Assembly: GCA_973895155.1 (NCBI GenBank)
Contig: OZ316891.1
Span: 23,311,899-23,375,898 of the forward strand
DNA: 64,000 nt
Direction of reading: 5' to 3'
Source: Marsupella aquatica
Taxonomy: Eukaryota; Plantae; Marchantiophyta
The notes below the pieces were generated by a model, which was given only the letters and a program-made list of their open reading frames with translations, was not told where the DNA came from and ran no database searches. Shown here in pieces: positions 11,950-62,524 of the stretch. The translations under genes and the position numbers were made by a program. Every line of letters begins with the position of its first letter. Positions within the stretch are counted from its first letter, which is position 1.

Positions 11950-12212
11950 AGTTTGGTTTGGATTGAGATGGTCCAAATGGATACATGCACATTCAGTAGA
12001 ATATTTCCACTGATATCGTCTAGTTTTGTGTTGGACTGGGATGGTCCCAGTCCAAATGGATTCATGCACATTCAATAGACTATTTCCACTGATATTGTCT
12101 AGTTTTGTGTTGGACTGGGATGGTTTGAGTCCAAATGGATTCATGCACATTCAGTAGAATATTTCCACTCATATTGTCTAGTTTTGTTTTGGACTGGGAT
12201 GGTCCCAGTCCG
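11950..12212. repeat. 79-bp tandem repeat (about 3.3 copies) containing the hairpin core in the opposite orientation; probably intronic
   Basis: TCCAAATGGA recurs at 11972, 12051 and 12130. Each unit contains a TTGGACTGGGATGGT(CCCAGTCC)-type core. Confidence 0.9.
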
Positions 12213-16308: not shown

Positions 16309-17695
16309 TGTCACGTCATCAGCCTTGGCCTTAACTCGGGCTTCAGCTTTAAACGGGCACATCCTTCGTAAATATGAGGGTTCGGGTAGGGAGGGACGAA
16401 TGTAATGCACCCAATTCATGTAAACTAGCGCTAAGTGCGCCTACTGTTAGATACGGACATCTCCTAGGTATGGTTTGTGTTCCGCCGCCGAAACGTACCT
16501 TAGTCGATAACAGGATCGACCCCGGCTTAAGGACTTCTAAGCCTTCGTGTTGTCCGCCCTCGATTCGGATGCGATGATACAGGTCCTCAACCCATGCTCG
16601 CAACCACATACCCGCAAGCTGCACCCTGTGCACGATTTGGGTAGTGCGTTCGGCCCGGCGTTGTCACCTATACACAAGATTCACACATACATACACGCGC
16701 ACAAGCATACAATCTCGATTTACACGAAGGAAATAATGGGAAAGGATTTTACTACATAGGGGACATAAGTGTACACTTGGTTGACCCGACAGCTCCGGAA
16801 TGAACAGGTTCAAGGCCGAGGGTGTACACTACAACGGAGCCCGGCTCCGCACTCGCCCGGCGAGCTTAGTCCTACCCCCTCCCCTTGGTACTCTTTCACT
16901 CCCAGAGGTCAGGACTCCCCGCATCTACCACCGATGTCCAACTCTGAGACTAAAACCCCCCCCCCTTGCCTCTACCGAGGGGTGCACTAAATACTAAGGG
17001 CCGAGGAACGGAGTGTCCTCCCGCCCAAAGATTTGCTGACTAAGGTCCTAACTAAGCTGACTGTCAGGCCAAAAAATGGCTGTCTTATTAGAAGATCCTA
17101 ATCTACGCAGGCTGGACAGCATGGCAGTGCTGCTGTAACTAAGGCAGGTGCCTGTCCCAATAGCTTGACTTAGCTATTCCTAACCCTATTCCATTCCTAC
17201 TCCACCGCTAATGTCTGGCACGCTTGCCAGAGCCGCCCGAGTGGGAGCGGTCCTCCCGCTGCCTGCAAAGTCTATCGTTGTCCAACTTGAGGAGCTCGAC
17301 TTGGTCTAGCAGAGATTCGTTCTCTCACTTCGCAGCGTCCGTCTCCTCCGCTGCCTCCTGGCATGCCTCCTCCAATTGCTGGGCGTTGCTCATCAGCTTG
17401 CCCACCAACTGGTCCTGCTTCTCGGCTTTGGTCTGAAGCCGCGCTACTTCGGCTTGTAGCATGGCTATCTCCGTAGTGTCCCGCTGGGCCCGTTCTTCGG
17501 CCTCCTCCAAGTCTTTCTGCCAAATGACAGTTTGATTCTTCAAACTATCAATTTGGGACCGGAGCCGTGAAATCTCGGCCTTGTTCCCAGCTTTGGCCTA
17601 CTCGGCTAGGGCGGTAAGGGCGTGCACCTTTGCTAACAACTTATTGGCGGCTGCAACTTTGGGTCGTAGTTGCAGAAGCTCAGCCTCTTGAGTTG
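16309..17695 (-). mobile_element. Family-B LTR fragment inserted into the A-like LTR, then truncated by deletion
   Basis: Starts TGTCACGTCATCAGCCTTGG as at 30849, is colinear with the other B LTRs, and encodes the KNQTVIWQKDLEEA coiled-coil tail. Confidence 0.9.
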
Positions 17696-17799
17696 CAACT
17701 GGAAGTGCAATTACACTTTGCACGTGAAGAGGATGCATGCTTTACGGCTATGCAGACTCGGAAGTACCAAGGCTTCATGGCCGGATCCGGCTTGGAAGA

Positions 17800-18625: not shown

Positions 18626-18817
18626 TGTTGTGACATTAATTCTATCAAGATCTCAATCAATCCATCAACAACTCCAATTAAAGTATGACCAATTCATGGT
18701 CATATATATACAATGTTAGTTAGGGTAGTTATGATCCTATTCATCTCCCTTCTACTAATTCGTACCCTTTCAGGTCTCCCTATCCACTGTGTTTGGGATA
18801 ATATTTGTATTACAACA
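18626..18817 (-). repeat. 3' LTR of the copia element
   Basis: No differences from 23910-24101 by eye. PPT at 18818-18825. Confidence 0.95.
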
Positions 18818-19147
18818 CTCCCCCTAGATTGCTAATAATGTATCATTTGGTGCAATCTAATGGGTAATAAATAGTTATCCAAATGTGGTATTTCTAATCT
18901 GATTTGCCATCAGGTGTAACCTCATTAAAAACCCTCTGCTTTCTTCTAGGGATAAAAAGAGTGTTACCACCCACAATGATGGGCCAGAAAAATTTATAAT
19001 GTATGTGTTCTCTATTTTGTAAATAGAGGTAATGGAAGTTCTCGAGTATTGAAAAATATGTGTTTCAGGCTTTGTGCTTTCCTGCTTGTGGTGTATTATG
19101 GTTTAGGTCATATTGGTTGGTGAGTCGACTTATTGTGGGTACTGTAG

Positions 19148-22100
19148 TCAAGGTTTCAGGATTGAGAGTCGACGCATGCCGATGCCCTCGCAGTGTTCAT
19201 TGTGCAGGATTCTAGGTAATGGTTTCGTGAAAAGGTCAGCTCTGTTTTCTTTGGAAGGGATCCAGACTATGTTGATGTGATCCCCGTGTTGTTCTGCGGT
19301 GTAGAAAAATTTCGGTGCTATATGTTTAATTCTGTCTCCTTTTATGAAGCCCTTGGTGATTTGATTGACGCAGGGTCGGTTGTCTTCAAAGATCGTTGTT
19401 GGAGCTGTCAGGTTAGGTCTTCCGGCAGAGGTATGGATGTGGTTGACTAGTTGTCGAAGCCAAACACATTCTCTACACGCTTCGTAAAGTGCGATTACTT
19501 CAGCATGGTTCGATGAGGTAGTGGTGAGTGTCTGCTTGGTGCTTTTCCACGATACTGCAGTCCCGCCTTGAAGGAACACATATCCCGTCTGGGATTTAGA
19601 ATCGTCAGGGTCGGATAGATAACCTGCATCGGCATAGCCCATGAGTTTGTTAGGAATCGTATTAGCATAGTATAGTCCTATATCTATTGTGCCTTGCAGG
19701 TACCTGAGGACTCGCTTGATGCCGTTCCAGTGGCGGATTGTGGGTTGGGAGCTATGTCTTGCAAGTAAGTTCACTGCGAACGCTATGTCGGGTCTGGTCT
19801 GGTTCGCAAGGTACATCAATGCTCCAATGGCGGAGAGGTAAGGTTTTTCTGGGCCGAGAAGTAGCTTTGAGTCTGTTCTCTTATGAAATATATCCTTTGT
19901 AGGGTCTAATGATCGAAGGTCCATCGGTGTAGTAACCGGATATGACTTGTCCATATTTAACTGCGCTAATACCTTGCGTGTGTAAGTAGACTGGTGGATA
20001 AAGATGCCTCCCGGTAATGTCTCGATCTGTATACCAAGGCAGTAATTTGGTGTGCCTATGTCTTTCATTTCGAATGCTGCTTTTAGAGTTGCTATCGTGG
20101 TGGCAGTGAGTTCAGGTGTACCAAAAATACTTATGTCGTCGACGTAGATCGCGGTAATAATGAACTCATCTCATATATGCTTGATAAATAAGCATGGAGC
20201 TATCTCGTGATTCACGAACCCAAGAGCGAGCATTTCTGCCTTAAATCTTTGATACCAAATCCTCCCGCTCTGTTTAAGGCCATAAAGAGAGCGGAGGACC
20301 TGTACAGCAATCTTGTTCTTGGATTTCTCTTTGCTGACAGTCTTGTTCACAGGTATCTTAACCTTGGTGGGACAAGATGGTATAGCATCAAGCTCTGTCT
20401 GTTTCTCGAAAACAGTGGGGGTTGATCTGTGGTTGATCAAGTTCATCTGCATTTCTGTAGGTACAATCTGGTCTACGCCAGACTTTAGATCTGGAGATAA
20501 TGGGAGAAGTTTCTCCCCCTGAATATGGAATTTAACTCTGTTAATGAGTTCAGGCGGGGCCTGCATATAGATCTCTATGTCTAAAACTCCATAGAGATAT
20601 GCTGTGACGACGTCCATCAGGTGCAGCTTAAGTTTATGAATCAATGAGAAAGCAATTAGGTACCTGTATGTGATGGCGTCCATAACCGGGGCATAGGTGA
20701 GGTCATAGTCCTTTCCCCAAATTTGTGTGTATCCCTTTGCAACCAATCGTGCCTTGTGTCTAATGACTTCACCTTTTGAGTTACGCTTTCTTACCAGTGT
20801 AATTCTATGTCCTGTCAGGTTCATGTCGGGTGGAGCTAGACAGAGTTTGCCAAACACCTGACGGGAGATAAGTGAGTCGAGTTCTGAATTTATGGCTTTT
20901 TCCCATAGGGGCCAATCGTCTTGTTTTCGTGCTTCACTGACTGTGTGTGGCTCGGTTCGATCGGAGGAAATTGTCTCTAATATGAGAAATGAAAAGTTCT
21001 CATTAATCGCGGTGTCTTGGCGGATCCAGACGTTCCCTGTGTGTGCATAGTTCAGGGAAATTTCTTCATTGTCGGCACATGGTTCCGGTATAGTTGAGAG
21101 TAAGGTAGTAGTTGGGCGTTTGTTCCTTAGTGTCCGATCCTTGGAACCTGGTGGGCGTCCTCTTTTTGCTTTGGGTGCTGCTGCAGTTGCTGGCCGTTCG
21201 TTGATGGAGATCCGGGCAGGGGTATTTGCTGCCTCTATGTGGGATTTGGTTACATTCGCGGCGTCATTGAAGGCGTCGGGTAATTTCTCCATCATTTGAT
21301 GTAGGTGTAATATGCGTTTTACTTCATCATTGGCTAATTTGGTCCTGGGGTCATTCCAAAACTGGTCCGTAGTTTGCCACTTTAGTTGGGTAGGCTCGAG
21401 TATGTCTTGTATGTCAGTGGTGCTCAATGTAGGGAATATCTCCTCTCGAAATTGACAGTCATTGTATCTTGCTCGGAATATGTCCGCAGTCGTTGGTTCT
21501 AGATATCTTATTATCGAGGGGGAATCAAATCCAACATATATACCGTTCTGGCGCTGTGGTCCCATCTTCGTCCTCTTGGGGCCTAGTATAGGAACCATTA
21601 CTAAGCATCCGAATGTCTTAAGGTGTGATACATCTGGGATGGTTCCGTATGCCATGTGGTATGGTGAATATGAATTAAATGCTGACGGTCTGAATTTCAG
21701 TAGTTCCGCTCCATGCAGGACGGCGTGTCCCCAAGCTGTAATGGGAAGTTTTGTTTGCATAAGCACTGGTCTCGAGATCATTTGTATGCTTTTAATGAAT
21801 GATTCTGCCGTGCCGTTCTGAAAGTGGACGTAAGCCACTGAGTATTGGACTATTATACCTAGTGTAGTGCAGATATCGTCGAAGGCCGGGGATGTAAACT
21901 CGCCGGCGTTATCTATCCGGATTGTGCGAATGGGTGAGTTCGGGAATTGCGCTCTCAGCCTGAGGATCTGAGTAAGTAGGCGCGCCAGGACCAAGTTACG
22001 GGTTGAGATAAGTGATACTTGGGACCATTTTGTTGAGGAGCAGATCATCACTAAAAAGAATCGAAAGGGTCCACTTGGGGGGTCGATGGGGCCACATACG

Positions 22101-23755
22101 TCAATGTTCAGTGTTCGAGGAACGCCGGGATCCTGTGTACTGTCTTCGAGGCTGATGGTCTGATCTGGAGTTTTCCTTGTGCGCATGCTGGGCAGATTTC
22201 CTTCATAGATGTGGGCTTTACCGTATGGGGTATTCCGCGGGTGTCCTTGAGAATTCGATGGTACATTGAGGTGCCTGGGTGGCCCAGGCGACGGTGCCAC
22301 AGCTCAGTAATTGTGGGTGTCTCTGCTTCCACCTTGTATGTGTGTATCGGGGTGGCATATAGTCTTGGTGGGTGGTATGGTAATGATTCATGTATAATTG
22401 GGTCTTCACCAGTTTCTGTCAGTATCTGTAGTGAGTTATTATTTGGGCCTGAAGTTGAGCGAATCTGGTAGCCATTTTCGTGGACGTCTTGAAAACTCAA
22501 TAGGTTCCTGGTCGCGTTGGGTGCGTATATTGCAGAATGTATGTTGATCAGTGTTTTGTTTGGGAGTAGAATTCTTGCAGGGCCGTGGCCTTCCTCTAAG
22601 TTGTTGGTTCCCGTTATGGTCGTCACTAGCCGATTCGATGGTGATATCTTTTGGAAGTAACGTTTGTCTCTTAATATAGTATGTGATGTGCCATTGTCCA
22701 GGATACATATGTTATCGTCAGAGAGGGAGGGGGCCAATGTCTCATCTGTGGCGAGATGTATCTCTGGGGGTGGCTCAGAGTTCACATACTTGCTGAGGTC
22801 TGCATCGATTTCTAGGTAGTTTGCTACCGTCATTGTTTGCGCTGTGGGCAAGCTTGCCTGATATCATTTGACTAAGTTTGGTTGGGCTCGGCAGTCGCGC
22901 TTGATATGTCCGGGGCCGCCGCATCGAAAGCATTGGATGGGTGGTTTCTGGGGGTCTCATTGCCAAGAGGTCTTGCTTCGTGGAGATTGTGTCATCGTGG
23001 GTTTGTTATATCGTCCTCTCTGGAATCTGGTCTTCGTATATCGTGGGTTTGTTATATCGTCCTCTCTGGAATCTGGTCTTCGTATATCGTGGGTTTTGTT
23101 TGGCGTGGTGTCCCTGGAATCGTCCCTTGCCTTTGAATGTGTCGGCCGCTTTTGTGGAGTTATATTGTATTTCCAATTTCGGGATAGTTCCTGGTGGTCT
23201 CGTTTTAGAGTTTTGCATCAAGAGTAGGTCGTTCTTCTCTGCCAGGAGCATAACGGCAATGAGGTCTGAGTATTCGGTGAAGTGCATCTGTCGATACTGT
23301 TGGGCTAATGTCATGTTTGCTGCAGGGAAGGTCGACAGCGTCTTCTCTATCTGGTCGGCTTCCGAGATTTGTTGTCCGCATACCTTCAATTGGGAGGTGA
23401 TCCGGAATAGTGTGCTGTTGTAGCTTGCTATTGTTGGGTGATCGAGGACTCGGAGGTGTATCCAATCGTTTCGTGCTGCCGGTAGGGAAATCAGTCGGAG
23501 GTGGTCATATCTTCGCTTGAGTGCATCCCATAGCGCCCTCGGGTTGTATTCGTCAAGATATTGGGCCTGTAAGTCTTGGTCTAGGTGATGTCTAAGGATG
23601 AATATGGCTTGAGCCTTGGTCTGTAGGTTTCCATGGTGATCTGCAATTATTATGTCCCCGAGTCCCTTCGCATTGAGGACGATCTCGGCGTTTTGTGACC
23701 AGGATAGGAAATTTGATCCATCGATCTTCAATACTGGGAATTGTAATTTCTCCAT
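19148..23755 (-). pseudogene. Copia gag-pol polyprotein, disrupted
   Basis: Gag 23006..23755, CFRCGGPGHIKRDC knuckle, protease ILDNGTSH, LWHRRLGHP, integrase IRIDNAGEF, RT KARLVAKG/LYGLKQSGR/IYVDD, RNase H GYADA..IFEDN..ADLFTK. Broken by a 46-bp duplication, a frameshift near 22110 and TGA stops near 22868 and 20171. Confidence 0.93.
22994..23096. repeat. 46-bp tandem duplication in gag causing a frameshift
   Basis: ATCGTGGGTTTGTTATATCGTCCTCTCTGGAATCTGGTCTTCGTAT at 22994 and 23040. Confidence 0.9.
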
Positions 23756-23909
23756 GTATAATAAAGTGGCTCGGGGGATTCAGAAGAAATTGTCTGTCTT
23801 CCCGATTGTTTGTCTTTCAGAGGATAGGTGTGTATGGAAATTATCAGAGTTCAACGCGTCTGGTCTCTTTTAGCTCGAGAAAAATCTGAGACATCAGGTG
23901 CTGATAACG

Positions 23910-24101
23910 TGTTGTGACATTAATTCTATCAAGATCTCAATCAATCCATCAACAACTCCAATTAAAGTATGACCAATTCATGGTCATATATATACAATGT
24001 TAGTTAGGGTAGTTATGATCCTATTCATCTCCCTTCTACTAATTCGTACCCTTTCAGGTCTCCCTATCCACTGTGTTTGGGATAATATTTGTATTACAAC
24101 A
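23910..24101 (-). repeat. 5' LTR of the copia element
   Basis: Identical to 18626-18817 by eye. PBS immediately adjacent (23897-23909). Confidence 0.95.
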
Positions 24102-25870: not shown

Positions 25871-27503
25871 CGGTAGGAGTCATCCGTTTCTTTAAAATCC
25901 CACGGTGGTCTAGAAGAGTTCAGGAATGGTGACGCCATTGATACAGGTGCTGCTCGAGCAAAGAACGGTTCATCGAAAAACTCAATCCATTGTGTCGATC
26001 ATTGATAGGAGACTCCGGTTGGGGAAGAAGAAATCAAAGGCACAAAAAATGCCTAAGGGAGAGAGTTTTCCGCGGTGCGACAGAGTGTCCGAGTCCCCTC
26101 TTCTCTTCTCCACTTTGTTTTCCTCGTACTCGGGCGACATCTCCTGAGCAGCCGAGGCCTTTATCCACGGCTTACCGTAATGTAGTTGCATGACACAATT
26201 TACCGCATTCCTTGCATTGCTATCTTTCAACGCAGCAGACCTCCGGACAATTGTAGGAGTTTCTAGTGGCTTCGCACTCAATTCAATGTGCTTGCATAGT
26301 TTTCTTGGTCACAGTTTTCGGTAAGAAGAATGAGAAATCAATCCAATTAACTTCATCAACTCCAGGGACTCACAGACAGATTGGTAGTACCGGTGGAGAA
26401 AGAGCAAGAGAACGTAGTGAAACGGACTGGACCAGGACTATTGACGCATGTGTGAACTAATGTGGCGCAGGCCAGTTCAGAATGTAAAGCAGGACTACGA
26501 TGAAAATTCATTCGCGGATAACAATGAAAGAATCACTGTGTGACTTTGGGAACTAAGACCCTAAGCGGGGATAGCATTGCCTTTCCCGCAGTCCTCATTG
26601 CACGGCAGGAATGAAGAGACACAGCAGGAATTACTCGGGCTTCAGCTTTAAATGGGCACATCCTTTGTAAATATGAGGGTTCAGGCAGGGAGGAAAGAAC
26701 GTAATGCACCTAATTCACGTAAACTAGCGCTAAGTGCGCCTACTGTGAGATACGGACACCTCCTAGGTATGGTTTGTGTTCCGCCGCCGGAACGTACCTT
26801 AGTCGATAGCAGGATCGAGCCCGGCTTAAGGACTTCTAAGCCTTCGTGCTGTCCGCCCTCGATCCGGATTCAATGATACAGGTCCTCAACCCGTCCTCAC
26901 AACCACATACCCGCAAGCGGCACCCCGTGCATGACTCGGGTGGTGCGTTCGGCCCGGCGTTGTCACCTATACACGAGCTTCACACACACATACACGTGCA
27001 CAAGCATACAATCTTGATTTACACGAAGGAAATAATGGGAAAGGATTTTACTGCACAGGGGACATATGCGTACACTTGGTTGACCCGACAGCTCCAGAAT
27101 GAACAGGTTCAAGGTTGAGGGTGTACACTACAACGGAGCCCGGCTCCGCACTCGCCCGACGAGCTTAGTCCTACCCCCTCCCCTTGGTGCTCTTTCACTC
27201 CCAGAGGTCGGGACTCCCCGCACATACCACGGATGTCCGACTCTGAGACTAAAAACCCCCTGCCTCTACCGAGGGGTGCACTAAATACTAAGGACCAAGA
27301 AACGGAGTGTCCTCCCGCCCAAAGATTCGCTGACTTAGGTCTTAACTAATCTGACTGTCAGGCCAAAAAATGGCTGTGTCTTATTAGAAGATCCTAACCT
27401 ACGTAGGCTGGACAGCATGGCGGTGCTGCTCTAACTAGGGCAGGTTCCTGTCCCCATAGCCTGATTTAGCTATTCCTAACCCTATTCTATTCCTACTGCG
27501 CCG

Positions 27504-30093
27504 CTAATGCCTGGCACGCTTGCCAGAGCCGCCCAAGTGGGAGCGGTCATCCCGCTGCTTACGAAGTCTGTCGTTGTTTGCCTTGAGGAGCTGGACCTGG
27601 TCTAGCAGAGATTCGTTCTCTCGCTTCGCCGTGTCCATCTCCTCCGCTGCCTCCTGGCATGCCTCCTCCAGCTGCTGGGCGTCGCTCGTTAGCTTGCCCG
27701 CCAGCTGGTCCTGCTTCTTGGCTTTGGTTTGGAGCCGCGCTACTTTGGCCTGTAGCGTGGCTATCTCCACAGTGTCCCCCTGGGCCCGTTCTTCAGCCTC
27801 CTCCAGGTCTTTCTGCCAGATGACAGTTTGATTCTTCAAACTGTCAATCTGGGTCCGGAGTCGTGCAATCTTGGCTTTGTTCCCAGCTTTGGCCTGTTTG
27901 GCTAGGGCGGTAAGGTCATGCGCCTTCGCTAACAACTCATTGGCGGCTGCAACTTTGGGTCATAGTTGCAGAAGCTCAGCCTCTTGAGCTGCAACTTTGT
28001 TCTTTAAGTATATGGACTCCACCCGGTACCGCTCTATCCTTTGAAGGGCCTCTGACTGGGCCCGACCTGCCTTTACTACGGCAACCAACTCCTGATTGAA
28101 GAAACAAGCTACCTTCCGGGAGAAGCCCGTTCAGAAATGTGCCCGGTATGAAGAGTTCCAGGTGGTCCAGGTTGTGCCTGTCCGGAGTTGGGCATGGGCA
28201 GACGTCAACACGCGCGGGGGCGGGGGCGGTGACATCCAGCCCTGGGGACATAGTGTTGGAAGGGGTTGGAGTGTCCTCCTGCAACAATGTCCGGTTCTCC
28301 GAAATAGCCACCGGTGGGTCTTTGGGAGACCCGGGCTCGAGTAAGGCCTCCGTTGTACCGACTTCTGTACTTGGCCCGACCTGTTGGATCGCATCTACAC
28401 TTGCGATTACCGACCCATCCGGTACCTCCTTGGTCACGACTACAGCTACTTGTGGAGGTGGGGTGGGTGAAGCCTGCATGTCCGCTGGACTTCGGGCCTT
28501 GGGTTGGGGCCGTCTCTCCAAGGCCGGGAAAACCCACCTAGCTGGGACCAGCTTTGTAACGTTGACACGGGGAAGGGTTCGTCGATCAAACCGAGCGTAC
28601 CACTCAAGAATGATCTCGATGTGGCTAGAAAATACGCCTTCCCGCCAATGTATAGCGTATTTCTTTGCCGCTCCATCTCTTCATGGAATTTCTTCGCAAA
28701 GTACAACGCCCACTTCCTAGGTCGATAGTTCTCGACCTGGATAACCTGGGCAGCGGAGATCTGCCCTTTGGGGTTTCATCATGTGGAGGGCGTATCTTTG
28801 GAACCCCAATTGTTCAGCTATCTTGGGGATGAGGCAGGTCCTCATCACGAACCCGTTGTCCATTGCTCCCTTGGAGGGAAAACTCAAGGATTGGTACTTG
28901 GCTCCCTTGCCTCCGGGAGCCCATGCTTCGTTTCGGTGGTCACCTTTGGGTAACCCGAAGATCATCTTGAGCCGTTCTTCCGCGAGGGACATATTCCTTC
29001 CCCACAGCCAAGTATGTTGACGTGCGTCATCATAATTCTTGACGAATTCCGTCATGTCCTCCCTGTAGTACCTGCAAGTGTTCCAGGGGAGAGAAGCGAG
29101 GTGCTCGAATCCCTGAGTCTTTAGGTACATTGCATGCTTGGGATGGAGGATGTTTTTATGCACGTTTTCCCCCATTTGGTGCATTGTCACCTTGGCCGCG
29201 GCTACCGTGGCCAATGGTAACCCGGATGCAGCGGCGGGTTCCTTCCTCTTCTTCCCCCGTGACTAGCTCGGGGAGGGTGACACCTCCCCATCCTCTTGAT
29301 CGGGCATAGGTAGTGCTACCGCCGTTAGTATTGGGCCCGAGGTGGCCATGGTCACCGTTTTGTCTGCTGGAGCCGCTCCTTGGGTCCGAGCATGGGGAGG
29401 GGACAATGTAGTGTCGGCCCCCTGAGTGTTTGCTCCTCTGGGCCGCCTGAGCAAGGGTGGGGTAGCCTCATCGTCGTCGCTAAGGTCCACAGCGTTGATG
29501 ACGGAGCATACTTGTACTGGCGGGGCGATCAGCGGTGGGGGTTGGCTAGGCTGAAGCTGAGGCTGAAGCTGAGCCTGAGTCTGCATTGGTGCGGGTATGA
29601 GTATGGGGTCGACTGGGCCGGCGCCGGCGGTTGAGGGTCTAGTTCCCATGAAGCTCTGCAGGTGTTGGTAGAAGTTCTCCGAAGCAAGTGTAGATGGCCT
29701 TGTTGAACGGGTAGTACTGGACTCGCTATTGATGATAGCCCAAACCTGAGTAGGGATGTGATCAAAGTGATGTCGTTGCAAGTTGATCGTACCCGGGATA
29801 TTGAAGACCTCGTCCGGGAGCCGAAGCAATGCTTCCCAGAAACCGATATATTTGTCTCCGTTGAAGAAGTACCTAGATACCTCTGATGGTCGGTAGAGCT
29901 TGCTCTAAGACGGGTAGTCAAAGTTAAGGATATAGTGGTGTCGCCCTGCTAGGCGAATGGCTCTCTTATACTCGCGTTCGATTTTGTATCGGCGCGGGTT
30001 GGCGTGTTTCAATGAGTCGGCCAAATGTCTTTTGATAGATAGGAACTGAGTCCAGAATCGAATGGCCGAACTGGAGAGAATCGTGTGCGACAT
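27504..30093 (-). pseudogene. LTR-encoded accessory ORF of family B (about 870 codons when reconstructed), fragmented
   Basis: Consecutive fragments 29905..30093, 29263..29829, 28717..29214, 27976..28521 and 27504..27935. Contains the QGFEHLASLPW..MTEFVKNY..MIFGLP domain, then a coiled coil ending GKRARH. Confidence 0.75.
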
Positions 30094-30193
30094 TCAGAGG
30101 AGATAGCAATGGCAACTAAGAGAGAACGACAGAGCTGGGGTCGAAGCTGGCGCGTGGACTGATGGACTGGTGCACTACAAAGGGTCGGCTCCC

Positions 30194-30201
30194 TTTTTAT
30201 A
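30194..30201 (-). promoter_or_regulatory. TATA-box candidate (TATAAAAA) in the B LTR upstream of the LTR ORF
   Basis: About 100 nt upstream of ATG 30093; conserved in the other copy near 50420. Confidence 0.5.
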
Positions 30202-30593
30202 CCTTGAGGGCTTGTCGATTGCCCAACGTCTCCTCGTTGCCTATAGGCTGAACCGTTCACGCTTGTAGTGTACCGGCCACTCCGCCGGTCTGAGTCAGTG
30301 CGTGTCAGTGGCCGCTTCCCTAAGTTTGTTATACGGACCTGAGGGAGAGGCCTTTGCACGCTCGCAACCCGGGCGTGCGAGTGGCGACACGCCACCAGTC
30401 CAAACGTGAATTCCCCTTATTGACTAATGATTTCCTACTCATAATGGTTACCTAAATATTGTCGTTATGCTAATAATAGCGGCCTAAGATACCCCTAACG
30501 CGCGTGCTAAGCGCGGTCTAGACTAATTACTCATTACTCACCGTACCGGCGGCGTCACATTAGCGGACAGCGGGTAGCGGCCTAACCCGAGAT

Positions 30594-30690
30594 CACGGGT
30601 TAGCTCTACTCGGGTTAGATAGGATAGCTAGGTTAGCCAAACTCGGGTTAGCTATGTAACTCGGGTTAGCTATGTAACTCGGGTTAGCAT
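30594..30690. repeat. Short tandem repeat ACTCGGGTTAGCTATGTA (18 bp)
   Basis: Two exact and several partial copies between two B LTRs. Confidence 0.75.
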
Positions 30691-31622
30691 AGTAGTGAGT
30701 ACCCCCTCTTGGTTACGGGGGCATAACTTTCTGTGTATTTGACCAAATCAGCTATAATTGACCTCGTTGGAAAGAGGAGCTCAAGCCGCTTCCAACGCTG
30801 CTATCCACACAGCAAATGGTTGAATAGAGAAATCGGGAGAGGAGGCATTGTCACGTCATCAGCCTTGGCCTTAACTCGGGCTTCAGCTTTAAACGGGCAC
30901 ATCCTTCGTAAATATGAGGGTTTGGGCAGGGAGGGAAGAACGTAATGCACCTAATTCACGTAAACTAGCGCTAAGTGCGCATATTGTTAGATACGGACAC
31001 CTCCTAGGTATGGTTTGTGTTCTGCCGCCGGAATGTACCTTAGTCGATAGCAGGATCGACCCCGGCCTAAGGACTTCTAAACCTTCATGTTGTCCGCCTT
31101 CGATCCGGATTCAATGATACAGGTCCTCAACCCGTGCTCACAACCACATACCCGCAAGCTGCACCTCGTGCACAACTCGAGTAGTGCGTTCGGCCCGACA
31201 TTGTTTCCTATACACGAGATTCATACACGCATACACGCACACAAGCATACAATCTTGATTTACACGAAGGAAATAATGGGAAAGGAGTTTACTACATAGG
31301 GGACATAAGTGTACACTTGGTTGACCCGACAGCTCCGGAATGAACAGGTTCAAGGCCGAGGGTGTACACTACAACGGAGCCTGGCTCCGCACTCGCCCGA
31401 CAAGCTTAGTTCTACCCCCCTCCCCTTGGTACTCTTTCACTCCCAGAGGTCGGGACTCCCCGCATATACCACGGATGTCCAACTCTGAGACTAAAAACCC
31501 CCCTGGCTTCTACCGAGGGGTGCACTATATACTAAGGGCCGAGGAACAGAGTGTCCTCCCGCCCGAAGATTCGCTGACTAAGGTCCTAACTAAGCTGACT
31601 GTCAGGCCAAAAAACTTTGCCG

Positions 31623-33810
31623 CTAATGTCTGGCACGCTTGCCAAAGCCGTCCGAGTGGGAATGGTCATCCCGTTGCTTGCATAGTCTGGCATTGTCCGA
31701 CTTGAGGAGCTCGACTTGGTCTAGCAGAGATTCGTTCTCTCACTTTGCCGCGTCCGTCTCCTCCGCTGCCTCCTGGCATGCCTCTTCTAGCTGCTGGGCA
31801 TTGCTCGTTAGCTTGCCCACCACCTGGTCCTGCTTCTCGGCTTCGGTCTGAAGCCGCGCTACTTCAGCTTGTAGCGTGGCTATCTCCGTAGTGTCCCGCT
31901 GGGCCCGTTCTTTGGCCTTCTCCAAGTCTTTCTGCCAGATGACAGTTTGATTCTTCAAACTGTCAATCTGGGATCGGAGCCGTGAAATCTCGGCCTTGTT
32001 CCCAGCTTTGGCCTACTTGGCTAGGGCGGTAAGGGCGTGCGCCTTTGCTAACGACTTATCGGCGGCTGCAACTTTGGGTCGTAGTTGCAGAAGCTCAGCC
32101 TCTTGAGCCGCAACCTCGTTCTTTAAGTATACGGACTCCTCCCGGTACCGCTCTATCCTTTGAAGGGCCTCTGACTGGGCCCGACCTGCTTTTACTACGG
32201 CAACCAACTCCGATTGAAGAAACAGGCGACCTTCCGGGCCATGAACTCCCCGGTATCCCGGGCAATTTGATGAGAAAAATCTCCTAGAAGCCCATTCAGA
32301 AAGGTGCCCGGTACGAAGAGTTCCGGGTGGTCCAGGTTGTGCCTGTCCGAAGTTGGGCACGGGCAGACGTCAACACGCGCGGGGGCCAGGGCAGTGACAT
32401 CCAGCCCTGGGGACGTGTTGGAAAGGGCTGGAGTGTCCTGCTGGTGTGATGTCCGGTTCTCCGGAATAGCCACCGGCGGGTCATTGGGGGGCCCGGGCTC
32501 GAGTAAGACCTCCGCTGTACCGACTTCTGTACCTAGCCCGGCCTATTGGATCGCACCGATGGTTGCGATAACCGACCCACCCGGTACCTCCTCGGTCACG
32601 ACTACAGCTACTTGTGGGGTGGGGTGGGTGAAGCCTGCGTGTCCGCTGGACTTTGGGCCTCAGGTTGGGGCCATCTCTCCAAGGCCGGGAAAACCCACCT
32701 AGCTGGGACCAGCCTTGTAACGTTGACACGAGGAAGGGTTCGTCGATCAAACCGAGCGTACCACTCAAGAATGATCTCGATGTGGCTAGGGAAATATGCC
32801 TTCCCTCCAATGTACAGCGTCTTCCTTTGCCGCTCCATCTCTTCATGGAATTTCTTAACGAAGTACGACGCCCACTTCCTAGGTCGATAGTTCTCGACCT
32901 GGATAACCTGGGCGGCGGAGATCTCCCCCCGGGGTTCCATCATGTGGAGGGCGTACCTTTGGAACTCCAGTCGCTCAGCTATCTCGGGGATGAGGCAGGT
33001 CCTCATCACAAACCCATTGTCCACTGCTCCCTCTGAGGGAAAACTCAAGGATTGGTACTTGGCTCCCTTGCCCCCGGGGGCCTGTGATTCGACTCGGTGG
33101 TCCCCTTCGGGTAACCCGAAGATCATCTTGAGCCGTTCTTCCATGAGGGACATATTCATTCCCCGCAGCCAAGTTTGTTGACGTGCGTCATCATAATTCT
33201 TGACAAATTCCGTCATGTCCTCCTTGTAGTACCTGCATGTGTTCCAGGGGAGAGAGGTGAGGTGCTCGAATCCTTGAGTCTTCAGGTACACCGCATGCTT
33301 GGAATGGAGGATGTTTTTATGCACATTTTCCCCCATGCGGTGCATTGTCACCTTGGCCACGGCTACCGTGGCCAATGGTAACCCGGATACAGTGGTGGGT
33401 TCCTTCCTCTTCTTCCCTTGTGACTGGCTCGGGGAGGGTGACACCTCCCCATCCCCTCTATCGGGCATAGGTAGTGCTACCGCCATTAGTAATGGGCCCG
33501 TGGCGGCCACGGTCACCGTGTTGTCTGCTGGAGCCGCTCCTTGGGTCCGAGCATGGGGAGGGGACGATGTAGTGTCGGCCCCTTGAGTGTTTGCTCTTCT
33601 AGGCCGCCTGAGCAAGGGTGGGGTAGCCTCATCGTCGTCGCTAAGGTCCACAGCGTCGATGACGGAGCATACTTGTACTGGCGGGGCAATCGGCGGTTGG
33701 GTTTGGCTAGGGTGAGGCTGAGGTTGAGGTTGAGGCTGAGCCTGAGTTGGTGCGGGTACGGGTATGGGGTCGACTGGGCCGGCGCCGGCGGTTGAGGGTC
33801 TAGTTCCCAT
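31623..33810 (-). pseudogene. LTR-encoded ORF in the B 3' LTR (C-terminal two thirds; the N-terminal part lies at 49384-50313)
   Basis: ORF 32608..33810 (400 aa) and downstream fragments are homologous to 27504-30093. Confidence 0.75.
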
Positions 33811-33852
33811 GAAGCTCTTCAGGTGTTGGCAGAAGTTCTCCGAAGCAAGTGC

Positions 33853-36800
33853 TGTGATGCCTAGACAGGAATCACTCGGCCGGTTAAGTGGGTAAAGCAG
33901 GAAGGCACCCTAGGAACACCTTAGTATAGTGACAAAACAAGGAAAATATAAACAATTAGGGGCAACCATGGAACCCGGGCAGAGGCCGGAGGTAAGGCTG
34001 AGGGTGAAAACCCGATTAGGGTTAGGGCGCGTTAAGCGTCGGCGGCTAGGAAGGATCAACGGGAAGAAGGACCGGCAGAGGAGAGGGGTAAGGAGCGCTT
34101 GCAGGAGATGGTGGCTCATTTGTGAGCACGAACTAGGCAGACGACTACGGGAGGCCAACTACTGTCAGCTGCTTAGGCAAGCACTCGGGGAGAGAGTAGA
34201 TACCGACGATCAACCTAAGGAGGGTATGAGCAATGTCAATCAAGCGGCACATTTCTGGGGATGCCTGTTCGAACGGGCAACTGAGTACATCAAGACTTAC
34301 GAGGACGAGGAATCAGAAAGGGCAGCTCGAGAACGGCAGGAGCTCGCTCGATTGTGGGAGCTATAGAAGACGGCTTTCTTAGGAGGCGAACTCATCAAGG
34401 ACGAGTTCCTGTGGACGCCTACTTCCAATCAACTCGACGATCTTCTGTTTTGCAAAGACAGCGTCGTCGGCATCCGAGAGGCCATCAAGAACTGCAACGA
34501 CATACACTGGGAATTAAAGGGTAGCACGGAAAGGTGGACCCGGGCAACGGTACTAGGAGAAACCTCCACGGCAGCAGAGATGAAGAGGAAGGGAGCCGTC
34601 AACGATGAAGCCACCCCGGCAAAAAGAACGAGGTCGGCGGCACCAAAGAAGCCAGCCGAGCAGCAGAGCAGGAGGCAGGGAGAAGCCGAAGAGGAGGAGG
34701 TCGATCCCATCAAGGCCATTCCAACCAGGGATGACACCTAGAAGGGCTGGGCGGCAACCCTACCGGTGGAGGTGCAACTACATTTTGCACGAGAGAGGAT
34801 GCATGCTTTACGGCCATGCAGACCAAGAAGTACCAAGGCTTCATGGCCGGATCCGGCTTGGAGGCCTTTGTAAGATTACCATGGCTGAAGCCGGAGGTAC
34901 CGGAGTCAGACCTATTAGAATTCGTGGGGTCATGGGAACCCGAGACCAATTGCACGAGGATATATGGGAAGGATTTCTATCTTACTCCCAAGGTAATTGC
35001 CGAAGTGTTTGGCCTGCCGATAGGCAATAAGACCAAAGTTGATACCAGGAAGACCTTGCCTGACAAGGAGTTCCGGTCGTTCCCCGGGCCATCAACGAAG
35101 AATGGCTTCTTCCGGAACACCTGCACCAACCCGCACATAGGAGAGATGATCGACTTCTTGCGGGTGACCATGCATTGTAACTTGCCGAGGGTAGAGATCG
35201 GCAAGGCACAGGTCTATCTGGCAGAAAGGCCAGACCCAAGCCGGGACTACAACGGGTACCTCCTCAACCAATTGAAGAAGATCTTAAAGGAGGAGCAGCA
35301 GGTAATCGGCATGGGGAGCGTGTCGCGGCTTGGCTATCACATGCCGCTGTTGTGCCGGTATGCCAGAAGTCAGACTTTTGCCCTGGTACTTCCCCTGCAG
35401 GTAAGGGCACCCGAGGAAGCTCCAACGCCGAGGCCGTTGGCTGAGAAGCCTCAACCACCTGTTAGTCCTACGATCGAGCAGGTGTTTAGGCCCAGGAAGG
35501 AAGACTTGCCGATGCAGCAACCAGGCATGCAGAGTCTGCTGAAACTACTAGAGAAAGAAAAGAAATCGGCATCGGCAACAACAACGGCAACGGCAACAAT
35601 GCAGGACACTACTACAGAGGTAGGCCTACACCGGCTCACAAGAGAAAACCCCTTTGCTGGAGACAAGGAGAGAATCAGGCCGGAATCCAAGCCAGGTGTT
35701 CGAATGTACGTGGGAACCTCAAGCTCCGAATCTGAGGCAGAATTGCCTGAAGCTCCTACCGACGAAGAGGAGAGGGAGAAGCCGGACGTCCAAGAGGTAG
35801 AGGAGGCAGTGGAGGACTGCAGCCATGATAATTCCGGCTATGGGTCGGACCATCACGTTCCAGGAGTAAGGACCTGTGGCCGGTTTGTCCCCACACTTCC
35901 AAGGGTAGTGCGAGGGGACCCCAACCAGCAGAGTAGCCCTGAGTCTCCCCCACCAGATGTTGCTCCCCCGAGCTTCGACGGCATAAAACAGACGGTGCAG
36001 GAATTTCAGGAGCGAATCAAGCAGGAGGAAGAGGCCGCCCTGGCTAAGGAAAAGGATTTACCAGGAGGAGATTGGCCGGAGGACATCAGGCGGCTAGCCG
36101 AAAAAGGAAGCAAACCTCTAGCCACGATTGAAGAGATCCGCAGGACGGCTTGGGAGCAGAGGCCACGATGGGCGATGCCGATCACTTCTACTTACTCCAC
36201 CTACGCTAAGAATAGAGCCATGGAGTATGGTGAGATGTGTGGGGAACTTGCGCTCGACATCTTTGGAGAGGAGTTGGAGGTAGGACCCTTTTTCCATAGG
36301 GAGCAGTTGGAGAAGCACCAATTAGAAGAAGCGGTGGCTTTAGAGAGAAGCAAGAAGGACGAGGTCATTCGGCGGCTTAGGAGGATGGAAGCCGAGATTG
36401 AAGATCTAAGGGCGGCCAAGAAAGCCCAAGATGAACTGCGGATTAAACGACATGAGCTGAACATCATGCAGGGGCAGTTGGACACCGCGCAAGCTGATAA
36501 TCAGAATATCAAGGATAAACTGACTCAGACACAGGAAGAGTTGGCCGACACGATCAAAGAGAGGGAGAAGTGGAAGCAAGAGCTGAAGAATACAGAGGAG
36601 GCCCACATAACAGCCAACAGCCGGGCCATGGCGGAGACCCAAAGAAAGGAATGGGCGTTGAAAGGGGAGCTCGAGAAAATCCGCGGAGCCCTTGAGCAGA
36701 AGGAGGTCGAGTTAGGGAAATCCTATCAAGGGATTATGGCGCTGCAGCAGGAGCTTGCGTCCCTGACGGCCAGCTTCAAGGCCGACCTAAGGGAGAAGGA

Positions 36801-38502
36801 CGAGATGCTCGAACAGACTTACGCCAAGATGAACCAGATGAAGTCTGTCATCATTGCAAAGCTCGACAAGGAGCTAAGAGCAACCAAGGAGGAGAGGGCT
36901 ACCTTGAAGAAGGAATTGGAGGAAGCCCACAGGGAGCAGGAGGAGGCCAAAAACGAGCTGGAGGGGGCACGTAAGGACCTGGATGAAACCCAAGAGGAGT
37001 TGGAGGAAATCACGAGGAAGATGGAGAACCTACAGCGGCGGGCCGACAACCAAACAGAGCGGCTGAAGAAACAAGCCGCAGTATTTAAATGCTTAGCTGC
37101 AGCAGGTCCATCTCCCGTTGGGACAAACCAGTTACCAGGGGTGGTAATTGCCGAAGGACAAGCCGCGCCAACTGCACCAGTGCCGGAAGTAAGTGGGAAG
37201 GGGAAGGGACCAGCTGCCGAGCCACCAACGAAGAAGAAGCGGAAACCTTCAGGGTCAAGGAGTAATACGACTTCACAGGCCGTGGTGATCAAGGAGGTAG
37301 ACCCAGCACCGACCCCAGACAGGGTCACGGCTAAGGATCCAACTACCCTAGGGGAAGGGGAGGCCGAAGCCGAGGGAGTGGCTGAAGCCGAAGCCGTGGG
37401 AGTGGCTGAGGCCGAAGCTGTGGGTATTGCCGAGGCCGGTGTCGAGGCTGAAGCCGAAGGTGGACCCAGTCAGGCCGATGGAGAGTTGACTCGGTCAAGG
37501 GCAGGTAATCTGTCAGTAGGCGGGCCAACGGCAGTGGCTGAGGAGGAAGTGTTGGGGGCGTCCATTGAGGATCCACCACCGGTGTCGTGACGGTGCAAGG
37601 GCGCCGTTCCTTTTAGGGAGGGCGGACGTGGAGGGAGGAGGCGTGAGTGGGCAGGGCGGGCGCGGATCTCCACGTTTAGGATTAGGATCAGAACCAGGAG
37701 CGGCCCTGACACTTAGCTTAGTGGGATTGCGGTCCCACTGGTAGGAGCAACACTTGTGCTCCTGCCTTGCTGTACATAGGTAGATTCGGGCAAGTAGATT
37801 ACTGTTAAGTAGATTAGGCTTACGATGCAAAGAATGGCGGATCCACTACCAGGATAAGTACCTGGGCAGCGGGGAGCTCAGGGCCTCTTCTTTAGCAAGT
37901 TTTTAGTTTGCACCAGCCGGGCTGGGATCAAGTAGTACGAGAAGCTCTCGGTTAGTCATACAGTGACCCTTGTGTATATTCATGTTTCCTCATGCCTAAG
38001 AGCTGAATAGAGTTGGCCTCACGGCTTAGTTCGCAGAACTTGTGTATGAGATGTACTGTTTGTATGGCAAGTGCATGGTATGACTCAGTCAGAATGAGTC
38101 ATTTTGCTATTTGTGTGTCGCATTAACTTGTGTGAAGAGTGCCCACATCAACAGAAGGAAGGAAAGTAAGCAGGGGAGTGAGAGTTGGATGTGTCGAGCT
38201 GAGAGAGGTCTTAGCGGCTTAACCAAGCCTATTGGGGATCATTCCGGTGGCGGAATCCAAACATACCTAACAAGAAGACAGGGGAAGACAGGGGAAGGCC
38301 TATATTAGGCCGGCTACGTATCTCATGACCCGATGAAGGATCTGTCCAATATATGTGTGTAAAATGTTAATAGTAGTAGTAGAAGGTTAGCAGCGTCCCA
38401 TGCCGCTAAGCCGCGGAAACGGCCTCGCCAAGCACGAAACCTGCGGGAATCGGCTTGAGCTGGGGGGTTTCTTGGGTTTAGGGAGCCATGGGACGCACCA
38501 CA
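33853..38502 (+). repeat. 5' LTR of element A (4650 bp)
   Basis: TGTGATGCC..GCACCACA; near-identical to 44727-49378. Confidence 0.97.
33968..37590 (+). pseudogene. LTR-encoded accessory gene, 5' LTR copy (924-aa C-terminal part open from 34816)
   Basis: ATG in ACCATGG context at 33968. Two premature TAGs (34364, 34739) and a 1-bp deletion near 34795 relative to the 3' LTR copy. Long coiled coil. Confidence 0.85.
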
Positions 38503-38506
38503 TTTT

Positions 38507-38526
38507 TGGCGCTAGATGGAGGGGGC
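38507..38526 (+). other. Primer-binding site, tRNA-Asn-like (TGGCGCTAGATGGAGGGGGC)
   Basis: 4 nt after the LTR. Complementary, with one mismatch, to the plant tRNA-Asn(GUU) 3' end ...CCCCTCCTTCTAGCGCCA as recalled. Identical in element B. Confidence 0.75.
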
Positions 38527-38571
38527 ATTTCTTAAGCCGTGAGATATGAAGTTAGAACGGAAGCGTAGGTA

Positions 38572-41151
38572 ATGACTGACCTTACGCCGAGGGAAGAAAG
38601 AGTGATTCAACGGGAGAGAGCTCGACTGCAGCAGCTCGCCGGGTGGCATGATACACAGCGACTGAGAGGGGCAGAAAGAGCTGGTAGCTCCGAAACTGGA
38701 AGTGGCGTCGAAGAAGACATACCAGAAGAAGAGTCGGTAAGGAGAAGTGAGTCTCCAACCGACATGGGGGAACCAGAGGCACGGCCAGACGAGAGGCCAG
38801 GGACCAGATTGAGCCAGCGGTCACGCATACATTACAAGGCATTTCATGGGAGAGGAGATGAGGATCCGGACGAATGGTTGGATGATTTCGAGGGAACCGC
38901 TGCAGCAAATGGAGAATCGGCCATCAAGATGCAGATTCTTCCCGGCCTGTTCAAGGGTGAGGCTAGGCCTTGGTACAGAGCATTAGATGTGGAAGATCAA
39001 GCCATCTGGGATATCTTCAAAACACTCTTTGTTAAGGAGTTTCGACCCATTGGAACTTCAGAACTAGCAGTGCTGAAGTTGGGACAACTTCGGTTCAAGG
39101 AGAACAAATCCTTCAGGAAGTTCTTGCAACGCTTTCAGAAACTGGTAAGACGTACAAAGACCAATGCATCTGAAGGTATGCAACTTCAATGGTTGGTGAA
39201 TGCTTTGCCACAGAAGATGAGTTTTGCAATTAGAAAGGAGAACCCGGAGACTTTAGCCGAAGCAATTAAGGATATTCAATTATACATTAATGCAGATATC
39301 ACAAGCCGGAAGAAACAGCTTAAGTCTGAGAGTTCCTCATCAGAGGAGGGATCACCCCATAAGAAAAAAGATAAGAAGAAGAAACATTCCAAGAAGTCTA
39401 GAAGTGATAAGTCAAGCTCGGATAGTGGGAGTAGCAAGAGTGAGTCATCTTCTAGTTCTGAAGAAGAAAAAACTAGGAAAAGGAAGGGCAGAAGGAGAGG
39501 GAAGACGAAAGTCAAGATGGAGGCTAAGCCACCAGATAACATCGTAGCCCTTACCGAGCAACTTAAGGCTATCATTGCAGAGGTAAAACCAAAGAAGAAG
39601 GTAGTACAGGAGGATAGCTCTGTATGGTGTGCCTTATGTTATAAAACCGGACACCATAAAGATGCGTGTCCTAAGCTTAATACTAATCATGTTCGGCATG
39701 TGGCCGAGATCAGACCATGTCAGGGAGAAGTAGAGTACTTTTTGGGAGATGCCGCTGATAGTGTTTTCGGCATCAGTGAGACTGGAGCACGAGACCTATC
39801 CAACAGACCTGCATCTCTATGGTCAGGGTTAAGGAACAATCCAGGAGAGATGTATCCTCGGATTATTCAGAACCCGTCAGTACCTCCTAGGCCGAATGTG
39901 CAAAGATTTGCGGCGTGCTATAATTGTGGTCAACCTGGCCATTTTGCTAGAGAATGCCCGAATGCACGCAAACAGGGTGATGGACAACCAGCTCAGCTAT
40001 GTATGGGATGCCGACAGGAAGGTCATATGCTAGGTCAATGTCCTACTTGGTTGGTAGGCCTGGCCGCAAATCATAAGCTTTTGCCGATCAAGATCTTACC
40101 GCCAGGTACTACCCCCGGAGGAGTTCAAATCAACCACATCGAACTAGGATGGCAAGAGGATGCCGAGGCAGAGTTCGTACCATCTGATGATGAGGCCGAA
40201 GCCCTATCAACCTTCTCAGAGGAGGATTTAGATCATGATTGCTACCGGGTCTCTACTCGATCTACCAGAAGGAAGGAAAGGTGGGATGGGCTGGCCAAAA
40301 ATAAAGGGAAGGTTACGGAGGAAAGGATCGACTCTTCGTCAACATCAACAGAAGGAGAAGGGAGGGCTCCGGCAATACAGGTAAGCCATGAGCCCACCAG
40401 TGAAACCAATCCTTCACAAGATAGCGACTTCAATCGAGATCATCCTAAGTTGTTCTACCCCTCTGTTACGGCTAGTGTTAAGGAACAACTAAGAGAATTA
40501 GAAACCCTGGAGAATACCAAAGCCATTGCCAAGGATGTAAAACAAGCAAAAGCATTGTTTGCTTCGGAAGACCCAACAGCTGTGGAGACTAGCGTGGCAA
40601 AACTGGCCGAATCCAAGACGGAAACACCACCAGAAGAGAAGCCGATTGTTCCCTATGACCTGGCTAAAGATGTACTAGAATCTAGAGTCTCGGCAACAGT
40701 AGGTCAACTATTGAAAAATAGCCCGTACTTCCGGAAGCAATTAAGGAAGGCTATTCTCGGCAAGCCGAGATTACCCAAGGTAGCAACCAGATCCAACGTA
40801 CTAATGATAGAAGAAGATCAAGGAGCCCCAGCATTACCATTAATGATTCAAGGAGAATTATTACTACGGGTACCCATCGATGGAGGATCAGGGGTATGTA
40901 TTATGATTGATTCAACAGCAAAAGGGTGGGGTCTAACACCGGAGATGACTGGAAGAGTGTTGAACATGGCCAATGGATATCAGGTCATTCCGACAGGAGT
41001 GTTAACCGGCATCAAGACAGAGATAGGAGGTATCTTCTTTAGCATTAACTATGTAGTAATGAAGCCGGTAAATCCTACGTCATTCCGGCTATTGATTGGT
41101 AGGCCATGGCTGTACCTAGCCGAGGTAATAGAAGATTGGGGTAAAAAGTAG
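38572..41151 (+). CDS. gag: Gag (three CCHC knuckles) plus aspartic protease of element A
   Basis: FHGRGDEDPDEWL capsid start; CALCYKTGHHKDAC, CYNCGQPGHFAREC, CMGCRQEGHMLGQC; protease IDGGSGV..LLIGRPWL. Confidence 0.92.
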   Translation: MTDLTPREERVIQRERARLQQLAGWHDTQRLRGAERAGSSETGSGVEEDIPEEESVRRSESPTDMGEPEARPDERPGTRLSQRSRIHYKAFHGRGDEDPDEWLDDFEGTAAANGESAIKMQILPGLFKGEARPWYRALDVEDQAIWDIFKTLFVKEFRPIGTSELAVLKLGQLRFKENKSFRKFLQRFQKLVRRTKTNASEGMQLQWLVNALPQKMSFAIRKENPETLAEAIKDIQLYINADITSRKKQLKSESSSSEEGSPHKKKDKKKKHSKKSRSDKSSSDSGSSKSESSSSSEEEKTRKRKGRRRGKTKVKMEAKPPDNIVALTEQLKAIIAEVKPKKKVVQEDSSVWCALCYKTGHHKDACPKLNTNHVRHVAEIRPCQGEVEYFLGDAADSVFGISETGARDLSNRPASLWSGLRNNPGEMYPRIIQNPSVPPRPNVQRFAACYNCGQPGHFARECPNARKQGDGQPAQLCMGCRQEGHMLGQCPTWLVGLAANHKLLPIKILPPGTTPGGVQINHIELGWQEDAEAEFVPSDDEAEALSTFSEEDLDHDCYRVSTRSTRRKERWDGLAKNKGKVTEERIDSSSTSTEGEGRAPAIQVSHEPTSETNPSQDSDFNRDHPKLFYPSVTASVKEQLRELETLENTKAIAKDVKQAKALFASEDPTAVETSVAKLAESKTETPPEEKPIVPYDLAKDVLESRVSATVGQLLKNSPYFRKQLRKAILGKPRLPKVATRSNVLMIEEDQGAPALPLMIQGELLLRVPIDGGSGVCIMIDSTAKGWGLTPEMTGRVLNMANGYQVIPTGVLTGIKTEIGGIFFSINYVVMKPVNPTSFRLLIGRPWLYLAEVIEDWGKK

Positions 41152-41471
41152 TTCACTTTCGGGACCCCCTCTATCACGGTATCCTGGGACACTAAGGATG
41201 ACCGTAGGAAAAGCATAAGGGAAGTAGATGGGTACGATAGTGGACTGGAGTCAGCCGATGAAGTACGTTGGTTAGAATGCCTCACTAACCTAACCGAAGA
41301 AGGTGTCTTTGGACCAGAGGTACCCCCCAGCGGATTATGGCAAGAACCAATGGAAGGTGACTTGGAAGAAGAAGACGAAGAGGTCGAGGACTACTTTACA
41401 ATAGAATCCACCTTTTTAGCTGCAATCCCGGAGGAAGTAAAGGATGTATACCAATTGGATGAAACGGCTAA

Positions 41472-56862: not shown

Positions 56863-56875
56863 AAAACAAAGGCTA

Positions 56876-62512: not shown

Positions 62513-62524
62513 AAATGGTGTCCT

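Follow-up and report, generated by a model that had tools for sequence, protein, structure and literature searches.

We analysed a 64,000-nucleotide stretch of the genome of the liverwort Marsupella aquatica (contig OZ316891.1, positions 23,311,899 to 23,375,898 of the forward strand; hereafter the window), in which two families of Ty3/gypsy retrotransposons, here called A and B, almost certainly carry a homologous gene inside their long terminal repeats (LTRs). The central domain of the encoded protein, which we call the core, probably adopts a fold like that of VANC, a protein encoded by the VANDAL DNA transposons of Arabidopsis, and of the plant mobile domain (PMD), a predicted resemblance that was missed in the preliminary description of this DNA. 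We put at about even the chance that the LTR gene encodes an anti-silencing or self-activating factor of the VANC/PMD type.

The preliminary description had held that the A and B LTRs show no obvious DNA similarity and nevertheless encode proteins of the same architecture, and both statements were borne out. Using blastn at a word size of 7, we found only one motif of 29-31 bp in common, near the 3′ end of the LTRs (E 6e-4), whereas the core proteins matched by blastp with 48 identities over 184 positions (26%, E 5e-18), the protein motifs quoted earlier aligning as claimed. The Smith-Waterman score of the two cores was 175, compared with a maximum of 53 in 2,000 shuffles. The shared architecture is in fact larger than first described, as it includes an N-terminal domain that had been overlooked: a profile of about 120 amino acids (aa), built from the near-complete B copy (B2) and six homologues without A, matches the upstream open reading frame (ORF) of A at 20 bits (E 2e-5 among 796 targets), against 7.9 bits for the best of 2,000 shuffles. 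The B gene thus runs in the order N-terminal domain, proline-rich linker, core, linker, coiled coil and basic end, and the A gene in the order N-terminal domain, core, linker, coiled coil and a basic and acidic tail. Identity between the families is 63% in pol, 35% in gag and 26% in the core of the LTR gene, in agreement with the earlier proposal that this gene diverges faster than pol.

A and B also share their primer binding site (PBS), which begins TGGCGCTAGA, and their polypurine tract (PPT), as had been noted. We presume that the PBS matches tRNA-Asn; a literature search on this point returned nothing relevant. The third shared feature of the preliminary description, an integrase terminus reading EDASQLS(G/R)ELCDA, did not stand as such. 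The integrase frame continues across the PPT and into the LTR, leaving no spacer between pol and LTR, and the peptide is, judging from the sequences compared, a read-through of a pre-PPT motif, the PPT and the LTR start, conserved as DNA acting in cis and not as a feature of integrase, because in a relative (L001) the same pre-PPT DNA lies behind the integrase stop. A shift of the PPT that moved an Athila-type 3′ gene into the LTR was also considered and is unproven; several relatives likewise end their integrase at the pre-PPT motif.

The retrotransposons of the window are nested in one another, with element A inside the 3′ LTR of element B and the fragment B1 inside an A-like LTR. The features are as follows, in window positions.

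15690-17796, plus: A-like LTR fragments (15690-16308, 78%; 17700-17796, 91%), parts of the same LTR gene, interrupted by B1
16309-17700, minus: B1, B LTR fragment with coiled coil and tail, last 1.4 kb only, inside the A-like LTR
26633-30559, minus: B2, near-complete B LTR, final 25 bp absent
27504-30093, minus: B LTR gene as found in B2, from Met to stop, interrupted by stop codons and indels
29731-30093, minus: N-terminal domain of the B gene; its homologue in A is 45100-45420
30195-30201, minus: TATA-like box, the only one found in the B LTR, at LTR position 359, upstream of the gene; B3 also has the box
30849-33852, minus: B3a, downstream part of the 3′ LTR of element B
32722-33312, minus: B core domain, open and under purifying selection, homologous to the A core that was modelled
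33853-38502, plus: A 5′ LTR, 4,650 bp, with the gene at 34226-37590 and breaks of its own
38503-44738, plus: A internal region, PBS 38507-38523, PPT 44714-44726
38569-41151, plus: A gag-protease ORF
41472-44738, plus: A pol ORF, stop codon inside the 3′ LTR
44727-49378, plus: A 3′ LTR, 4,652 bp, 99.6% identical to the 5′ LTR
45100-48466, plus: A LTR gene, about 1,120 codons, single break near 45602, core 45692-46273
49116-49146, plus (A), and 57032-57062 (B4): motif of about 30 bp, containing a small inverted repeat, in the tails of the A and B LTRs
49384-50784, minus: B3b, upstream part of the 3′ LTR of element B, with a duplication of about 0.5 kb
50785-56875, minus: B internal region, broken gag-pol, PPT 50785-50797, PBS 56846-56862
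56876-58892, minus: B4, 5′ LTR remnant with linker, coiled coil and non-coding tail, last 2.0 kb

The four B LTR copies reported earlier (at 16309, 26633, 30849 and 56876) are confirmed, all on the minus strand. Copies B1, B3 and B4 are 88-92% identical to B2, and the reconciled LTR length is about 4 kb. B3 (30849-33852 plus 49384-50784) is split by element A and carries the internal duplication of about 0.5 kb and a 125-bp deletion, and B2, with no PPT upstream and its last 25 bp absent, is probably a solo LTR. Element A (33853-49378, plus strand) has the 5-bp target site duplication (TSD) AGTGC on both flanks. The 289-bp spacer between B2 and B3 (30560-30848) contains short tandem repeats with TAACCC; it is unique within the window, and its deep coverage in public contigs marks it as itself a repeat.

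The B gene starts at Met 30093, directly after a shared stop, with the same Met in B3b, and ends at a stop at 27504. In B2 this span of 2,590 nucleotides corresponds to about 878 codons once the indels of B2 itself are allowed for, in keeping with the roughly 870 aa first estimated, although the copies are broken. The reading frame is interrupted in every B copy, with no piece longer than 433 aa, and the core is present in B2 and B3 alone. There are nine stop positions among the 814 B codons examined, of which seven are private to a single copy and two are common to B1 and B3a (B2-equivalent 27896 and 27623; absent from B4 and B2); no stop is common to all copies covering its site, and each frame-shifting indel is private to one copy where three copies overlap. 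B3 and B4 differ by 5-8%, and this, with the stops common to B1 and B3a, suggests that B3 and B4 may not be a simple LTR pair, or that the stops recurred. An intact B orthologue exists as a 906-aa protein in Logan (P0182), which is collinear with the B N-terminus, core and coiled coil and matches the B core at 40% over 338 columns (E 1e-67).

Selection on the B gene was assessed against 5,000 simulations that kept the observed mutation spectrum. The B core shows 23 changed residues where 33.4±2.9 were expected, and 0 of the 5,000 simulations were as low; the B core is under purifying selection. Selection on the B linker was not significant, and the non-coding tail of the B LTR behaves neutrally in all three frames. 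For the coiled coil we discarded the raw NG86 ratios (0.32-0.42), as they were not significant once the mutation spectrum was preserved.

In A, the N-terminal domain is constrained from Met 45100 onward when compared with the A-like fragment (P 0.0004), and the open frame upstream of 45100 was rejected as coding, since it evolves neutrally (P 0.87). The genes in the 5′ and 3′ LTRs are broken at different points, both in the junction between two ORFs. We also consulted public contigs, using 4 of 16 listed runs, labelled as four organisms (one of them may be the source of the window itself), and the break of the 3′ LTR is missing from 47%, 71%, 95% and 76% of their contig depth. Because the two LTRs differ in their breaks and the 3′-LTR break is missing from most or much of the contig depth, the parent of A most likely had one gene of about 1,120 codons with its parts in the same order as in B.

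For the A core, an alignment of 36 sequences gave a model with a mean predicted local distance difference test (pLDDT) score of 90.7 and a predicted template modelling (pTM) score of 0.85; an earlier model from three sequences (pLDDT 40) was unusable. In an exhaustive structural alignment against 48,161 chains, the top match was the VANC21-DNA complex (9lnk_A), with Z 7.3, a root-mean-square deviation (rmsd) of 4.1, 177 of 194 residues aligned and 9% identity, and the next-ranked chain reached only Z 3.6. A second VANC21 entry (9lnj_A) gave Z 7.3, rmsd 4.4 and 186 residues aligned. Feature matches in the ESM Atlas linked the P0182 core at 0.90 to a cluster with DUF1985 in 13% of members and to one with PMD in 20%, and the A core to DUF1985/PMD clusters at 0.85-0.86. 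PF20167 gave a weak match in 2 of 38 homologues, the best at 17 bits for a cut-off of 45, and several lysine or arginine columns of the core are conserved. PMD and MAIN are described as structurally alike to VANC, and PMD has been linked to the DUF1985 of VANC (10.1101/2024.09.27.615353; PMC13547354 for MAIN); here and below, published systems are described from the accessible parts of the cited sources.

Several results count against the assigned fold. Foldseek found no match at E<=0.001 in PDB or BFVD, none of 19 proteins from the window and none of 38 homologues reached the Pfam gathering cut-off for PMD, PF20167 or DUF1985, and Z 7.3, at 9% identity, lies within the range that the tool deems typical for models without a clear match, where Z 7-8 is common by chance. 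A PDB sequence search likewise gave no match. On these grounds the LTR gene could be an ordinary Athila/Tat-type accessory ORF of unrelated fold, its VANC match a chance helical resemblance; we regard this as unlikely, given that the match spans nearly the whole domain at twice the Z of the next chain and that a sequence-based method independently gives DUF1985, a domain carried by VANC. We regard the VANC/PMD-like fold as probable, because the gap to the second rank, the coverage and the independent signals outweigh the modest Z.

If the LTR gene encodes a factor of this type, its product would be a nuclear DNA-binding protein that keeps copies of its own family from being silenced. It would be transcribed from the one TATA box that precedes the gene, be imported into the nucleus through its basic motifs, oligomerise through its coiled coil, and bind family-specific LTR DNA to relieve silencing, by analogy with VANC21, which recognises short motifs in non-coding tandem repeats of the transposon family that encodes it, with loss of methylation (PMC5735166). 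The basic motifs are present in the LTR protein, and each LTR has one TATA-like box, located upstream of the gene (LTR position 95, or 44821, in A; LTR position 359 in B), with none in the LTR tail of about 900 bp in A or B. The gene may accordingly lie in R/U5 behind the element promoter or in U3 with a promoter of its own. Owing to its location in the LTR, the gene would be copied to both ends of the element by reverse transcription and would stay with its promoter in a solo LTR; under either arrangement, box and gene are kept together in a solo LTR such as B2. Retroviruses also have accessory genes encoded in the LTR, such as sag of mouse mammary tumour virus and nef of human immunodeficiency virus, which are duplicated at reverse transcription as would happen here, although their proteins are unrelated and much smaller.

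An anti-silencing role has to be set against further evidence. The enrichment of TTAGG in A (P 0.037) and of CTTAGT in B (P 0.007) in the non-coding LTR parts is marginal among 8 tests; a VANC-type tandem array of target motifs was not found, the best whole-element word (corrected P 0.03) being no better than control DNA; and neither the B coiled coil (P 0.05-0.44) nor the B N-terminal domain (P 0.20) gave a significant signal of selection. Finally, the host proteins MAIN and MAIL1, with the same fold, promote silencing of transposable elements (TEs) (PMC5418596), so that the fold alone does not tell whether silencing is relieved or promoted. The LTR protein could accordingly be a self-limiting repressor that controls copy number in the manner of MAIN/MAIL1; PMD proteins function in silencing in Arabidopsis (PMC5418596), and the dosage of such a repressor would increase with each LTR, solo LTRs included. 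With A and B both highly repeated in public contigs, and PMD-C described as counteracting Polycomb silencing (10.1101/2024.09.27.615353), we judge this improbable.

The lack of a clear target-motif array also counts in favour of a protein with the same fold and another job, namely a factor that binds chromatin and either tethers the integration complex or aids nuclear import. The long coiled coil and basic motifs would suit this role, nuclear roles have been proposed for the accessory proteins of Grande and Retand, and within the window A has inserted into B and B into an A-like LTR. Such nesting is, however, commonplace in repeat-rich DNA, and the sole outstanding structural match is an anti-silencing protein bound to DNA; we consider this reading rather unlikely. 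An envelope-like protein for cell-to-cell spread is highly improbable: sense accessory ORFs of Athila have been termed env-like, but none of the seven pieces tested of the LTR protein has a segment of transmembrane strength (maximum 19-residue hydropathy 0.46-1.46), and the core has no viral fold match. Separately, we observed that TTAGG occurs at 9-13 per kb in the non-coding parts of A versus about 2 per kb elsewhere, and that a telomere-like TTAGGG doublet lies downstream of the TATA box at 44880-44900 and is retained in the A-like fragment (15690-16000).

To place the elements, we built a tree of reverse transcriptase and RNase H (RT-RH) from 96 rows with at least 400 of 465 residues each, dropping all others, by a quick method with midpoint rooting. 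A, B and two Calypogeia rows form a clade with a Shimodaira-Hasegawa-like approximate likelihood ratio (SH-aLRT) of 100, within a group that includes Riccia rows and is apart from all named angiosperm rows (SH-aLRT 99-100), those rows being Athila by inference only in a tree that lacks labelled references for Athila, Tat or Phygy. In pol, the closest named relatives belong to the liverworts Calypogeia (68-69% over RT-RH), Riccia and Marchantia. Pfam gives a single RNase H region both in the pol of A and in those pieces of B that were scanned, and no additional RNase H (aRH). A safe label, from these sequences, would be aRH-less non-chromovirus Ty3/gypsy elements of bryophyte type. The earlier term 'Athila-related' is not supported beyond a loose sense, with A and B falling outside the angiosperm clade: Athila as defined in REXdb resembles A and B in lacking an aRH and resembles A in its 5-bp TSD, but has a sense accessory ORF between pol and the 3′ LTR, where A has no such spacer.

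Among known systems, VANC21 and VANC6 (9LNK, 9LNJ; PMC5735166) are alike in predicted core fold, in being transposon-encoded accessory proteins and in fast divergence between families, and VANC has coiled coils and predicted pentamers (PMC13547354), the LTR protein also having a coiled coil. VANC differs in coming from Mutator-like DNA transposons, whereas here the gene belongs to a Ty3/gypsy LTR, has an extra N-terminal domain and is accompanied by no tandem target arrays that we could find. The accessory ORFs of OTA Ty3/gypsy elements (Athila ORF-1/PF03078 and PF20167, Ogre PMD-A/PF10536, Retand Transposase_28) likewise encode a globular domain, often with a coiled coil (PMC6317226, PMC11963269, PMC5418596), and the weak PF20167 and PMD signals in the core add to the likeness; PMD-A of Ogre is described from angiosperms. 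Plant accessory ORFs have been placed upstream or downstream of gag-pol and described as being of unknown function (PMC7264820, PMC11963269, PMC11728184, PMC5418596, PMC12859917), those of OTA elements mostly between pol and the 3′ LTR, in contrast to the whole gene in the LTR here. Liverworts contain Tat Z1/Z2 elements without aRH (PMC10508981, PMC13468544), similar in this to A and B, and the accessible text on Z1/Z2 (PMC10508981) mentions no LTR-borne gene. The moss element Phygy resembles A and B in a polyprotein spanning nearly the whole internal region, again with no LTR-borne gene in the portions of the source consulted, and has a 4-bp NCGN TSD compared with 5 bp in A; Selgy also has a 4-bp TSD (PMC6317226). 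A literature search at title and abstract level, incomplete in coverage, returned no whole gene inside a plant LTR and no VANC-like retrotransposon factor.

In the four runs of public contigs, coverage reached 30, 30, 30 and 24 of 30 bins for the B stretch and all 30 bins for the A stretch, and the summed depth for B in runs X1 and X2 was about 20-300 times that of the flanking bin, which indicates a repeat and not a copy number. A profile search of 1.84 billion proteins returned 60 homologues; among 20 clusters looked up (19 of core homologues and one of pol), seven have members from Calypogeia fissa and one from Riccia sorocarpa. A word-based protein search with the A core and an alignment-based search over proteins of 1,092-3,115 aa gave no match, viral contigs no relative, and metagenome contigs one 1,011-bp locus, which ends 76 bp into the LTR. 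The preliminary description had proposed LTR-borne genes as the trait of a clade; the homologous LTR gene in A and B agrees with this, but the LTR position is established only for these two families and one A-like fragment, the homologues being known as protein sequences. Two of the core homologues, P0171 and P0180 (one from Riccia), also have a weak DDE_Tnp_4 match, which hints that the core domain also occurs beside Harbinger-type transposases.

Self-encoded anti-silencing has been shown for VANDAL DNA transposons (PMC5735166). More tentatively, and to our minds on the doubtful side, this may be a liverwort Ty3/gypsy clade with a VANC-type, sequence-specific anti-silencing gene in its LTR, in which each solo LTR would be a self-contained de-silencing cassette and the retrotransposon relatives of VANC/PMD would be far older than angiosperms. 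The structural link of a retrotransposon accessory ORF to VANC21 makes its function directly testable, and bears on whether the plant mobile domain arose in hosts or in Gypsy elements, which PMC5418596 does not settle. With a gene of 2.6-3.4 kb in the LTR, solo LTRs, normally dead ends, could still supply a protein acting in trans, and such elements would tend to escape LTR-finding tools whose length limits are short.

Elsewhere in the window, a broken run of ORFs at 10570-15136 (plus) ends in one (14414-15133) with a near-threshold Pfam match to N6_N4_Mtase (E 1.1e-5; 25.9 versus 26.7 bits), possibly a decayed transposon-borne DNA methyltransferase gene. An intact 617-aa ORF at 3578-5431 (plus), flanked by tandem repeats, has a globular start, a coiled coil and a basic end; no Pfam family scored above its cut-off, the core of the LTR gene did not match it, and it is not detectable as a homologue of the LTR gene. 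A Copia-type element at 18626-24101 (minus) has identical LTRs of about 190 bp and a 5-bp TSD, yet its reading frames are split. A 27-bp tandem array occupies 6779-7600, with a second patch 2 kb away (9545-9800), and 62036-64000 (minus) holds the remnant of another element with a weak aspartyl-protease signal.

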